DNA of 64,000 nucleotides. Source: a virus. The first letter of the stretch is position 1, and each line of letters opens with the position of its first letter. The notes beneath the pieces were generated by a model, which worked only from the letters and a program-made list of their open reading frames with translations, made no database searches and was not told where the DNA came from. Positions 23,668 to 57,830 of this stretch are shown piece by piece. Made by a program: the position numbers and the translations under genes. Where the stretch lies: the IMG/VR virus record IMGVR_UViG_3300021964_006878, positions 1 to 64,000 of that record. The stretch is one strand, 5' to 3'.

Positions 23668-23741
23668 TACGAGTGGTGGGAGTCGAACCCACACTGTCGA
23701 AATTTTAAGTTTCGTTTCTCTGCCTGTTGGAATACACTCGC
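23668..23741 (-). tRNA. trnL: tRNA-Leu(UAA), short variable loop, no encoded CCA
   Basis: Acceptor GCGAGUG/CACUCGU; anticodon arm CGAAA-CUUAAAA-UUUCG; T-arm GUGGG-UUCGACU-CCCAC; discriminator A. Confidence 0.92.
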
Positions 23742-45401: not shown

Positions 45402-46055
45402 TCATATCAACCACTCATTATCAATACCTCCAAGTGCTTCTGCTGTTATGGGAAACTCTTTACAAAATATCTCCTTACAAGATTTTGCAATTTCCATATG
45501 CTCTTTCTGTGTTCCATTCTTCTCTCTCAGAGCAATGTAAGTAATCCAACTCCGCAGACTGCCAGTCATGTAGATTCTGGTGGGAGTACAGAGGGGAAGC
45601 ACATTTCTTGCACATTCCTTTGCCACACCACGCTCAAGCATCTGCTGATATAATGCCATAGAAGAATCAAACAGAGTCTGCATTTGCAGTTCCATGTTCT
45701 GAATTATAAAAGGATCAAGGTCATCAATCGAGTTCTGACGATTCTTTGTATCCTGACGGCGAAGTTCAGGCAAAGGAATCTTATCACCAAGCAGAGATGA
45801 ATCTGCATACCGTTGTGAAAATTCTTGATATGTGAAACTTCTATGACGCAATATCTGAGCCGCAATAGCACGGGTAGTCTCAATCTCTAAGGTCATAGTG
45901 GATTGTTCAAACACAGACCAGTGGTTGTGCTTGATACAGTAACGTAAAAGACCAGCGTACTTATCGTTCTCCTGGTTACTGGGGTTGGAAACTCTAGCGA
46001 TATACGCCATAGTCTTTTCTGCGTCAGGAGTAACGCTTACTAGTTGTGCTCTCAT
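45402..46055 (-). CDS. thyX: Flavin-dependent thymidylate synthase
   Basis: ThyX motif LRHRSFTYQEFSQRY; HWSVFE. Confidence 0.95.
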   Translation of the reverse strand: MRAQLVSVTPDAEKTMAYIARVSNPSNQENDKYAGLLRYCIKHNHWSVFEQSTMTLEIETTRAIAAQILRHRSFTYQEFSQRYADSSLLGDKIPLPELRRQDTKNRQNSIDDLDPFIIQNMELQMQTLFDSSMALYQQMLERGVAKECARNVLPLCTPTRIYMTGSLRSWITYIALREKNGTQKEHMEIAKSCKEIFCKEFPITAEALGGIDNEWLI

Positions 46056-46561
46056 AACATTTGCAATAATCTATGTTCTTTGTGATGATTTCTTGTGCCC
46101 TTATATGTTTTGTGTAGAGTTTGTTTGTTTAAATCATTCTCTAAACAAAATGTCGTAAGGTTTTTCACCTCTATTATATCACCAGAAGGGATTTTAATCA
46201 ACCACCTTTTAGAGTTGTCTGGCATTTTATAAACCCCATTCTTAATGGCGTCTTCAACATTTTCTTTTATTGTTCCCCATTTTAGATTAGATAAAGAGTT
46301 ATTATCTTTATTGTCGTCAAGATGTCTAACTACTTCGTGGTTCTTTGGGTTTGGAATAAATGCCATAGCAAGAAGTTGATGTAGTCCTTTCTGCCTTCTT
46401 TTTCCTTTTAAATCATACAAAGAAAAAGCATAGTATCCCCTTTTGTTTTTATGCCCGTTAATATATCTTTTAAGTTTAATCGAATAAACTTTTCCATCTG
46501 GGTATATTTTATAATGAGGATACTCATCTAGTATTCTACAATCCATCTCCATCATCGTCAT
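46052..46561 (-). mobile_element. HNH homing endonuclease (NUMOD4/HNH-like)
   Basis: HQLLAMAFIPNP....VRHLDDNKDNNSLSNLKWGT..EN; TATAAATA at 46580-46587. Confidence 0.88.
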
Positions 46562-47125: not shown

Positions 47126-47154
47126 AAAAAAAGAGAGGATAGTCAATCCTCTCT
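47126..47154 (-). terminator. Intrinsic terminator of the DUF4278 transcript
   Basis: AGAGAGGAT-TGACT-ATCCTCTCTTTTTT. Confidence 0.8.
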
Positions 47155-47172: not shown

Positions 47173-47340
47173 TCACTTAGTATAAGTACGACCACGATAG
47201 CAGAATGTACCGTGCGACTCTTTGTTTTCTACACAACGAGTAGAATACTCAACACCACGATATGAAGTGTGAAGAATTTGTGCGTTATGCAGTGCAGATG
47301 CTTTGTTGATCTGCTGCTTTACCATTTGAAGGGTGTTCAT
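47173..47340 (-). CDS. DUF4278-family small protein (GS-inactivating-factor IF17-like), 55 aa
   Basis: MNTLQMVKQQINKASALHNAQILHTSYRGVEY...GTFCYRGRTYTK (double YRG motif); SD AGGAG; downstream of glnA aptamers. Confidence 0.8.
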   Translation of the reverse strand: MNTLQMVKQQINKASALHNAQILHTSYRGVEYSTRCVENKESHGTFCYRGRTYTK

Positions 47341-47373
47341 GTTGTTACTCCTAAAGTAGTTGGATTTTTAGGT

Positions 47374-47561
47374 CCGTTCCTTTAGTCGTTTGCGTCCCAA
47401 TACCACTCACATTCTGGTGCTGAGTCCTTAAGAGTCTCAATCAATTCAATCTTAACTATATTACTAAGATTAGAATTTTTCTCAATCTTCAGCATAATAG
47501 CATCAGTTTGAGTACAGCTGAGTGTTGTATAGAATAATAGTTCTAACATGGGATGAACGAT
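47374..47561 (-). ncRNA. glnA-type glutamine riboswitch aptamer 2 (P2 region contains an ORF)
   Basis: AUCGUUCAUCCCA...UGGGACGCAAACGACUAAAGGAACGG; P1 CGUUC/GAACG, P2 UCCCA/UGGGA. Confidence 0.75.
47382..47549 (-). CDS. 55-aa ORF embedded in the riboswitch aptamer
   Basis: MLELLFYTTLSCTQTDAIMLKIEKNSNLSNIVKIELIETLKDSAPECEWYWDAND; uninterrupted frame. Confidence 0.7.
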   Translation of the reverse strand: MLELLFYTTLSCTQTDAIMLKIEKNSNLSNIVKIELIETLKDSAPECEWYWDAND

Positions 47562-47644
47562 TAGAGTGATTTTTTCCAGCGACGAATAGAAGTATGAGAT
47601 GTTTGATAATCTTCTGCAAGTTTTCTAATAGGCAGTGTAGCAAA
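47561..47644 (-). pseudogene. HTH-like coding remnant between the two aptamers
   Basis: Startless frame FATLPIRKLAEDYQTSHTSIRRWKKSL*, preceded by an in-frame TGA. Confidence 0.5.
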
Positions 47645-47657
47645 TCATTCTAATTCT

Positions 47658-47724
47658 CCGTTCCGCGACTTACTTGCGTCTCCTAATCAAGTCCAAATTT
47701 GTTCCAAATTAGGAGATGAACGAT
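47658..47724 (-). ncRNA. glnA-type glutamine riboswitch aptamer 1
   Basis: AUCGUUCAUCUCCUAAU...AUUAGGAGACGCAAGUAAGUCGCGGAACGG; 9-bp P2. Confidence 0.82.
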
Positions 47725-47730
47725 AGGTCT

Positions 47731-47759
47731 ATTATAGACCTCATACATTATTTAGTCAA
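47731..47759 (-). promoter_or_regulatory. Sigma70 promoter for the riboswitch transcript
   Basis: TTGACT-N17-TATAAT; predicted +1 near 47724, the first base of aptamer 1; -10 box sits in the palindrome GGTCTATAATAGACC. Confidence 0.8.
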
Positions 47760-57679: not shown

Positions 57680-57750
57680 AAAGTAAGACCATCAGGGAAT
57701 GGTGGAGTTACTATTTCCCAGACACCCTAAGTCTGGGATATGAAAGACTG
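57680..57750 (-). ncRNA. PhotoRC-II-like RNA motif in the psbA 5' UTR
   Basis: UCUUUCAUA-UCCCAGAC-UUAGGGU-GUCUGGGA-AAUAGUAA...ACCAU-UCCCUG-AUGGU-CUUAC; loop-loop AGGG/CCCU complementarity. Confidence 0.8.
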
Positions 57751-57830
57751 TTGTTTAGACACGCTGTTTAGTCTTGGTAAGGCGTGTTACAAATGGTTAA
57801 GAAATGTGTTGGTTCCGTAACCTCTCGACT

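Follow-up and report, generated by a model that had tools for sequence, protein, structure and literature searches.

A whole protein-coding gene is lodged in a hairpin loop of a glutamine-riboswitch-like RNA element in a cyanophage genome. Herein, we analyzed 64,000 nucleotides (nt) of viral DNA (positions 1 to 64,000 of IMG/VR record IMGVR_UViG_3300021964_006878, hereafter the window), which form part of a T4-like cyanomyophage whose closest records are Synechococcus phages. The gene, an open reading frame (ORF) of 55 codons designated ORF55, lies on the minus strand, ahead of a gene of the DUF4278 type. We consider it probable that ORF55 is a real gene sited in the P2 loop of a two-core interlocked element that would sense glutamine, and that it is coupled to the switch controlling the DUF4278 gene, the regulatory logic being read from the sequence.

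An initial annotation of the window had described a complete 55-codon frame nested between the two halves of an aptamer, and all of its coordinates and letters were correct. On the minus strand, CGUUCAUCCC-AUG (47559-47547) and UGGGACGCAAACGAC-UAA-AGGAACGG (47399-47374) frame an intact 55-codon ORF, which runs from the AUG at 47549-47547 to the stop codon UAA at 47384-47382 and has the C-terminus W-D-A-N-D-stop. About 200 related loci were parsed, and variation was counted mostly over 197 of them. In every parsed locus with a long loop, the same two flanks framed an ORF.

The composition and variation of ORF55 indicate a genuine small-protein gene under purifying selection, and its translation is predicted. 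The protein matched PHROG 504 from end to end (E = 3.7e-25), and in S-MbCM7 it is listed as a hypothetical protein, cluster T4-GC_430. A profile search returned 1874 clusters (90% identity), all of them unnamed or hypothetical, whose members came from marine metagenomes and phage isolates. Among the 120 clusters listed, nearly all had a length of 53-56 amino acids (aa), and about a dozen were of 75-82 aa, which are likely upstream-extended gene calls. Over 135 unique ORF55 coding sequences, the proportions of synonymous and nonsynonymous differences (pS and pN) were 0.60 and 0.24, respectively, and the ratio of nonsynonymous to synonymous rates (dN/dS) was 0.24. The loop lengths formed a single series in 3-base steps (140, 143, 146, 149, 152, and 180), the exceptions carrying one additional A ahead of the AUG. 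The frame was intact in 149 of 152 unique long-loop units, running over 52-63 codons between an AUG at the stem and a stop ahead of GGAACG, and these intact frames spanned sequences down to ~30% identity. Frame preservation, a check named in the initial annotation, was thus found across the homologues, and frameshifts or stops did not prevail among them. Two Cys, two Glu, one Pro, and the Trp were invariant in the family, and AlphaFold2 run on the ORF55 alignment gave a four-helix model with a mean predicted local distance difference test score (pLDDT) of 81.9. Because of the PHROG 504 membership, the intact frames, the 3-base length steps, the low dN/dS, and the confident model (pLDDT 82), we regard ORF55 as a real gene.

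The function of the protein was not indicated by the comparisons. The Pfam scan gave only sub-threshold noise, the PDB sequence search gave no match, the Foldseek search of the model against the PDB returned nothing at E <= 0.001, and the ESM Atlas contained only unnamed 55-aa clusters. As had been noted before, there was no Shine-Dalgarno (SD) sequence upstream of the ORF55 start; the text at this position is the end of a decayed homing-endonuclease gene. A single copy was clearly frameshifted (L128, 701-852), and both of its aptamer halves were unaltered. In nine loci (L021, L024, L028, L033, L039, L042, L079, L080, and L082), the ORF55 frame had no stop upstream across the entire first unit and could begin at an AUG close to the promoter, which yields 82-83 aa, and public gene calls of 75-82 aa for this extended frame exist (e.g., P0010 and P0029). 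The extension crosses the stop-free text GAC GCA AGU AAG UCG CGG AAC GGA and is probably an artefact; since it was missing from most loci, we treated it as chance and rejected the longer frame as a gene.

The start and the end of ORF55 are built into the helices of the RNA. The last A of the 5' strand of P2, UCCCA, is the A of the AUG (47549), as previously claimed. Likewise, the last codons, W-D-A-N-D-stop, coincide with the 3' strand of P2 (UGGGA, 47399-47395) and the junction (CGCA, 47394-47391, and CGACU, 47388-47384). In this stem, referred to as P2(2), 147 unique units had U-A as the first pair and 7 had C-G, single mutants being absent; this exchange alters the conserved Asp of the ORF55 C-terminus to Gly. 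At the fourth pair, C-G (147 units) alternated with U-A and U.G (4 units each), indicating that pairing was kept across the 150-nt ORF loop. The P2 covariation around the ORF, another check named in the initial annotation, was therefore present. Synonymous change was 0.17 in the last six ORF55 codons, compared with 0.64 in the ORF interior, which is the signature of an overlapping RNA constraint. From the compensatory pair changes and the suppressed synonymous change, it follows that the stem enclosing ORF55 is maintained by selection. In three phage contigs, the flanks of the second unit close a loop of 2 or 17 nt without an ORF.

Two of these natural ORF-less alleles (L150 and L154, with loops of 4 or 17 nt by another count) served as a stand-in for deletion of the loop in silico when the element was compared with Rfam. 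They aligned to RF01739 (Glutamine) over the full model length with 32.7 and 30.1 bits (E = 4.6e-4 and 2.5e-3), and to RF01704 (Glutamine-II) with 29.4 and 27.2 bits. For the searched sequence these matches are significant, yet they fall under the Rfam gathering scores for the two families (35 and 33 bits, respectively). The scan of the window at gathering scores gave no glutamine riboswitch match. With E-value thresholds, cmscan reported only the compact upstream unit (24.8 bits against RF01739; 24-30 bits for the compact units of relatives) and left the ORF-bearing unit unreported. Membership of RF01704 was not supported either, since scores stayed at 22-29 bits and the second hairpin was unaligned or mostly unpaired in the cmscan alignments.

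Several defining parts of RF01739 were nevertheless recognizable. Both CGUUC and both GGAACGG strands are present, which provides P1 (CGUUC:GAACG) followed by the G for the long-range pair with the linking-strand C. Hairpins follow directly after CGUUCA and are closed beside the linking strand, and both of them, P2(1) and P2(2), covary. CGUUC, CGCA, and GGAACGG, the ligand-site nucleotides in solved glutamine riboswitch structures (PMC6698751), all occur in the element. Two further family features, association with a DUF4278/IF17-like gene and a fold that masks the ribosome site, were also found, as described below. The element is thus a glutamine-riboswitch-like variant, closest to glutamine-I with the CGCA strand of glutamine-II, and its glutamine binding is putative; we use the word "like" because the Rfam thresholds were not reached and the ligand is putative.

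The arrangement of the strands differs from that of two aptamers side by side. In 15 of 197 loci, the middle GGAACG was changed to GCAACG together with a change of the middle CGUUC to CGUUG, whereas single changes occurred in none, indicating that these two middle strands pair with each other. The changed bases correspond to the C5:G36 pair of the ligand-binding helix in the glutamine-II crystal structure (PMC6698751). When a 71-sequence alignment was drawn as tandem aptamers, the innermost P1 pair was broken in both units in 13 sequences; when drawn as interlocked cores, 99.4% of positions were paired, and the P1 pair of core II, P1(II), was G-C in 58 sequences and C-G in 13. On a tree of the ORF interior, the P1(II) allele changed at least 10 times, and all five contrasts on supported branches were compensating. 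The second pair of P3 (AGUCG:CGACU) was G-C in 192 loci, A-U in 27, U-A in 3, and G.U in 1, with no mismatches; position-4 variants of P3 were not found in IMG/VR. The 5' half of the glutamine-I loop-E, AGUA, was confined to the position after the first CGCA, and the 3' half, GAA or AAA, to that ahead of the last GGAACG (AAA replacing GAA in 61 of 197 loci, the window included). The two halves face each other across the shared P3, and neither unit has a P3 hairpin of its own. Minimum free energy (MFE) folds of the window and of the relative L011 contained P1(II), P2(2), and the hairpin that sequesters the SD sequence of the next gene. A reading of the element as a relic aptamer was rejected, as it is contradicted by the covariation.

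These results indicate that the two cores share one P3 and swap P1 strands: the last GGAACG is the partner of the first CGUUC, and the two middle strands, GGAACG and CGUUC, pair with each other. Pairing of the outer P1, that of core I, is deduced from the exclusion of other partners and from its analogy to the solved fold. The resulting fold would be fully nested, with two three-way junctions at the two ends of a single P3 helix, and each junction has the strand order of the solved glutamine-I junction. ORF55 is then sited in the P2 loop of core II and simultaneously inside the P3 "loop" of core I. The initial annotation had named a second aptamer as the host of the ORF. That the ORF occupies the P2 loop of a glutamine-aptamer-like core was upheld, but the covariation shows that this core is not self-contained with a P1 of its own.

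The stop codon of ORF55 takes part in a further helix. The gene downstream matched phrog_545 (E = 3e-35) and, below the cutoff of 25.3 bits, PF14105 (20.4 bits, E = 6.7e-4), in agreement with its earlier designation as a DUF4278 gene; DUF4278 is linked to the inactivating factor IF17 (PMC6212724). The segment CU(A/G)AAG, which holds the ORF55 stop codon, is complementary to CUU(U/C)AG, which extends into the AGGAG ahead of the DUF4278 gene. Among 134 unique leaders, the stop UAA faced U in 35 of 35 cases and UGA faced C in 59 and U in 31, while A.C combinations were absent. On the tree, this anti-SD:SD helix gave 8 supported independent contrasts, of which 6-7 were in the same direction and none in the opposite one. 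The helix shares bases with P3 and the outer P1, so that it excludes both, and it was seen in ligand-free MFE folds. The location of the ORF55 stop codon inside a 6-nt anti-SD segment, predicted to mask the ribosome site of DUF4278, is newly reported here. By comparison with known leaders, the anti-SD:SD helix is the expected expression platform of an ON switch: glutamine riboswitches before cyanobacterial IF17 and IF17-like genes have been shown experimentally to be ON switches (PMC6212724). As a separate observation, the first CGUUCAU (47716-47722) is complementary to AUGAAC(A) at the start of the DUF4278 gene (47335-47340, minus strand), and the two were paired in MFE folds. This pairing was rejected as a conserved feature, for genes starting with AUGACU, AUGUCU, or AUGGCA keep an identical CGUUCAU.

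The other hairpins of the element can hold genes as well. In many relatives, including Synechococcus phage Sf-CH5, the P2 hairpin of core I contains an ORF of 66-68 codons (ORF66, PHROG 6471). The AUG, paired with CAU, is part of its 7-bp stem, and so is the stop codon; the stops UGA, UAA, and UAG were matched by the 5' strands UCUCAUG, UCUUAUG, and UCCUAUG, respectively, and 72 of 86 stems were perfect. In both the ORF55 and ORF66 families, the start codon lies 0-1 nt from the stem. Divergent ORFs of 58-63 aa in the ORF55 loop were aligned with ORF55 by hhalign at 97% probability (E = 7.6e-11), indicating that they are homologues. Homology of ORF55 and ORF66 was not established by hhalign (12% probability), and the comparison of ORF66 with the 58-63 aa group gave 8%.

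The loop between the middle P1 strands was only 3-6 nt long in most relatives and ~590-605 nt in several IMG/VR relatives. In Sf-CH5, an intact homing endonuclease of 190 aa occupies this site (L003, 1794-2366). The window retains an internally deleted remnant, consisting of a 7-codon start (47648-47625) and a C-terminal end of ~70 nt, whose stop (47563-47561) is located 1 nt before CGUUC.

More nested ORFs, of 57-63 and 68 aa, were observed in the P2 loop of the second unit (L212, L217, L220, L225, and L238) and in that of the first unit (L220, L233, and L238), each with a Cys pair and a hydrophobic N-terminus. In the second loop, every one of them finishes with D-A-N-D/E, an ending dictated by the RNA, and one 68-aa ORF of the first loop terminates at the UAA within the junction AGUAA. 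In some loci (L063, 908-1482; L083; L108; L112; L129), the ORF55 unit is followed downstream by a third glutamine-aptamer-like unit. Ahead of this third unit lie a partly duplicated ACGACU..GGAAC segment and a hairpin containing TATAAATA, and its P2 loop contains an HNH-endonuclease-like ORF of 182 aa that reads W-D-A across UGGGACGCA before the stop.

The anatomy suggests how sensing and translation could interact. The initial annotation had proposed that ribosome transit and aptamer folding are mutually exclusive, which follows from the layout, since a ribosome on ORF55 must unwind the 3' half of the sensor. Its further idea, that one RNA could toggle between making the peptide and switching the DUF4278 gene or could sense translation rate as well as glutamine, gains a concrete form from the placement of the ORF55 stop codon in the anti-SD strand. 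Glutamine binding would lock P1, P3, and the loop-E-like element, so that the anti-SD segment would be withdrawn into the sensor and DUF4278 translation turned on. The locked fold would also tighten the helices on both sides of the ORF55 AUG and lower ORF55 initiation. A ribosome translating ORF55, in turn, would melt the 3' strand of P2, the CGCA strand, P3 (hence both cores), and the anti-SD helix, erasing the sensor. Translation of ORF55 would thus reset the sensor and, with its stop codon 41 nt before the DUF4278 start, might briefly open the DUF4278 ribosome site by translational coupling. The RNA would in this way integrate the glutamine level with translation of the nested gene. In phages with ORF66, whose stop lies 36 nt before the ORF55 AUG and just ahead of the strand pairing with the ORF55 leader, one can conceive of a relay in which ORF66 acts on ORF55 and ORF55 on DUF4278.

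A broader proposal, which we regard as possible but doubtful, is that the double glutamine sensor, strand-swapped within one covalent chain, works as a relay and switches translation in two directions. Glutamine would repress the hairpin-lodged genes for small Cys-pair proteins of the ORF66 and ORF55 types and activate the IF17-like gene, and the stop of each nested gene would unlock the next start, that of ORF66 the ORF55 start and that of ORF55 the DUF4278 ribosome site. If so, the phage would set the ratio of these small proteins by the nitrogen state of the host.

Several observations weigh against a coupled, interlocked sensor. Translation of ORF55 that opens the DUF4278 site at low glutamine would blur a simple ON/OFF logic. 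Three loci do without an ORF in the second loop, so the switch can dispense with it. The outer P1 shows no variation, and the changed positions of the middle P1 are only ~12 nt apart in a quasi-palindrome, so that one templated event followed by recombination could explain much of their covariation. Independent events on supported branches were few (5, 2, and 2). Finally, every unit scored under the Rfam gathering score and is not a member of RF01739 by that measure.

One alternative is that the loops are harmless insertion sites. They might simply tolerate inserts in which small genes and homing endonucleases have settled, with the sensor working whenever it is free of ribosomes and no selected link between ORF55 and the switch. 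Selfish genes do sit in the same loops, intact in Sf-CH5 and as a remnant in the window, and the HNH-like ORF lies within the P2 loop of the third aptamer (L063, L083, and L108). Moreover, compact loops replace ORF55 or ORF66 in some phages, among them the three loci whose second loop is empty of an ORF. However, the ORF55 family was found in this position only, in all parsed loci, and the homology of the divergent 58-63 aa ORFs points to a long joint history rather than repeated colonization. Settlement by chance also leaves unexplained the fixed start at 0-1 nt from the stem in both ORF families, the start and stop codons within the stem, and the ORF55 stop codon in the covarying anti-SD strand. 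We therefore hold mere tolerance of passengers to be unlikely.

A second alternative concerns the fold. The element might consist of two self-contained tandem aptamers, with the middle GGAACG:CGUUC hairpin as an alternative ligand-free structure competing with both and ORF55 in the P2 loop of an ordinary second aptamer. The Rfam alignments do cover each unit over its whole length as a stand-alone aptamer, 182 of 197 loci have four P1 strands of one sequence and so permit both topologies, and tandem glnA RNAs have been reported (PMC2864571). The double mutants, however, keep the middle hairpin and would leave a C.C and a G.G mismatch at the core pair of both aptamers. In addition, AGUA in unit 1 only and GAA/AAA in unit 2 only face each other solely across the covarying shared P3, the swapped topology restores the strand order of the solved glutamine-I junction, and a strand-swapped dimer is seen in the glutamine-II crystal. 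Two independent aptamers are thus improbable. That ORF55 is untranslated, the 150-nt insert being a conserved structured RNA extension of P2 with an incidental open frame, would account for the missing SD sequence and for the lack of a Pfam family, PDB sequence relative, or fold match, but is scarcely credible in view of the dN/dS of 0.24 with near-saturated synonymous sites, the indels in threes, the 149 of 152 frames kept intact across sequences with identity as low as ~30%, the two invariant Cys, and the confidently predicted helical fold.

The coupled two-core sensor with ORF55 as a real gene remains the explanation that we favor, and the features on which it is based are listed in Table 1.

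Table 1. Features of the ORF55 locus, given in window coordinates and ordered along the minus strand
Feature	Position	Strand	Basis
Sigma-70-like promoter TTGACT-17-TATAAT	47731..47759	-	11/12 matches; identical TTGACT...TATAAT text upstream in related loci
Core I P1 5' strand CGUUC (A1-5')	47718..47722	-	Invariant in 197 loci
Core I P2 hairpin, stem UCUCCUAAU/AUUAGGAGA; compact here, 66-68 codon ORF in other phages	47679..47716	-	Covariation in first four pairs
Core I linking strand CGCA and AGUA (5' half of loop-E-like element)	47671..47678	-	Sequence; role of CGCA per PMC6698751
P3 strand a, AGUCG	47666..47670	-	Pairs with 47388-47384; covariation
GGAACGG (A1-3'), pairs with CGUUC 47559-47555 as P1 of core II	47658..47664	-	Compensatory change in 15 loci; in window MFE fold
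Homing-endonuclease remnant, 88 nt, in loop of P1(II) between middle P1 strands	47561..47648	-	Intact gene at same site in Sf-CH5
Core II P1 5' strand CGUUC (A2-5')	47555..47559	-	Compensatory change
P2(2) 5' strand UCCCA, last base = A of ORF55 AUG	47549..47553	-	Sequence; pair counts
ORF55, nested protein-coding gene, PHROG 504 / T4-GC_430, 55 aa, two invariant Cys	47382..47549	-	PHROG match, dN/dS, frame conservation, model
P2(2) 3' strand UGGGA, also codes Trp and start of Asp codon	47395..47399	-	Pair 1 U-A 147, C-G 7; pair 4 C-G 147, U-A 4, U.G 4
Core II linking strand CGCA, within codons Asp-Ala	47391..47394	-	Reduced synonymous rate in last six codons
P3 strand b, CGACU, overlaps codon Asp55 and first stop-codon base	47384..47388	-	Covariation with AGUCG
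Anti-SD segment CUAAAG, contains ORF55 stop UAA (47384-47382)	47380..47385	-	Pairs with 47356-47351; covariation; MFE folds
GGAACGG (A2-3'), probable partner of first CGUUC (P1 of core I)	47374..47380	-	Invariant; by elimination and topology
CUUUAG and SD AGGAG (47352-47348) of downstream gene	47348..47356	-	Sequence; covariation
DUF4278 / IF17-like gene, 55 aa, PHROG 545	47173..47340	-	phrog_545 E = 3e-35; PF14105 sub-cutoff
Intrinsic terminator hairpin, then T run	47132..47154	-	Sequence

Along the minus strand, the order is promoter, compact unit (47722-47658), endonuclease remnant, CGUUCAUCCC-AUG, ORF55, UGGGA-CGCA-AA-CGACU-AAA-GGAACGG (to 47374), AGGAG, DUF4278-like gene, and terminator. 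The predicted transcript start lies ~2 nt ahead of the first CGUUC, and the stretch from ~47759 to ~47132 thus reads as a short transcription unit that opens with the glutamine-riboswitch-like element. RNA-library contigs from three marine studies, belonging to relatives without the endonuclease remnant, bridged the DUF4278 gene, ORF55, and the end of the first unit, which is compatible with a single transcript; these contigs cover small shares of the stretch and carry no information on transcript ends, strand, or translation. The gene thyX (45402-46055) adjoins the locus, and a 169-aa ORF (46052-46561, minus strand) directly downstream of it overlaps the thyX start. Elsewhere in the window, a PhotoRC-II RNA (57703-57799, minus strand, 65.6 bits) and a tRNA (23668-23741, minus strand) were above the Rfam gathering scores.

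Riboswitch aptamers are usually treated as compact non-coding domains. Here, a whole selected gene lies inside a riboswitch-like aptamer, with its start and stop codons built into the predicted sensor helices. Such a layout, present in hundreds of related phages, is common among T4-like cyanophages, marine and other, but escapes the usual Rfam scans; searches with covariance models for annotation should permit gene-sized insertions in hairpin loops. If the coupling is true, a competition on one RNA between ligand sensing and the translation of an embedded gene, with control of a second gene as its outcome, would be seen here for the first time. As that second gene is a homologue of the host glutamine-synthetase inactivating factor, the switch is relevant to the ways in which phages sense the nitrogen metabolism of their hosts and redirect it. 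The initial annotation had known of no description of a riboswitch-embedded gene, and in the literature searched, to which Ames & Breaker 2011 did not belong, we likewise found no gene inside a riboswitch aptamer and no interlocked glutamine aptamers.

Among known RNAs, the glutamine-I riboswitch (glnA motif, RF01739; Synechocystis gifB/IF17 leader, PMC6212724) shares with the phage element CGUUC, the linking strand, and GGAACG(G), perhaps also AGUA...GAA flanking P3, as well as the P1/P2/P3 three-way junction, the position before a DUF4278/IF17-like gene, and the ligand-free fold that masks the ribosome site of an ON switch. The phage element differs in that P1 strands are exchanged and P3 is shared between two cores, P2 closes round a whole protein gene, the linking strand is CGCA, as in glutamine-II, rather than CGGA, and the units score below the Rfam gathering score, the ORF-bearing one being invisible to cmscan. 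With glutamine-II (Downstream-peptide motif, RF01704; PMC6698751), it has in common the ligand-site nucleotides CGUUC, CGCA, and GGAACGG. The glutamine-II crystal is a strand-swapped dimer, and a two-piece RNA still binds glutamine (PMC6698751), so the strands of P1 and the pseudoknot (PK) can come from separate segments. Unlike glutamine-II, the phage element has no enclosing second hairpin or pseudoknot, and its swap takes place within one covalent chain held by the covarying P3. The strand-swapped two-core architecture would thus be a natural counterpart of the domain-swapped dimer in the crystal and a test bed for cooperative or long-range riboswitch folding. In tandem and cooperative riboswitches (tandem glnA, glycine), two ligand-binding domains likewise sit on one leader of one gene, but side by side, whereas in the phage the two domains are locked together through exchanged strands, and a gene can sit in any of the hairpins.

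Group I and II introns with loop genes for homing endonucleases or maturases (PMC3984707) also have an ORF in a terminal loop of a folded functional RNA and face the same conflict between folding and translation, and homing endonucleases occupy loops of the phage element too. In contrast to an intron, however, the phage host RNA is a putative ligand sensor rather than a ribozyme and does not splice, ORF55 is not an endonuclease, and its start and stop codons lie in the sensor helices. In leader-peptide attenuation and translational coupling (trp leader, ermC, overlapping phage genes), the helix that forms downstream depends on where a ribosome stands in the upstream ORF, as may occur here with the ORF55 stop codon in the strand masking the next ribosome site; the difference is that the upstream ORF of the phage encodes a conserved protein of 52-63 aa, predicted to fold, instead of a short sensing peptide, and that the competing structure resembles a metabolite aptamer. 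Intron ORFs are thus the nearest structural analogy, and attenuation with translational coupling is the nearest functional one.

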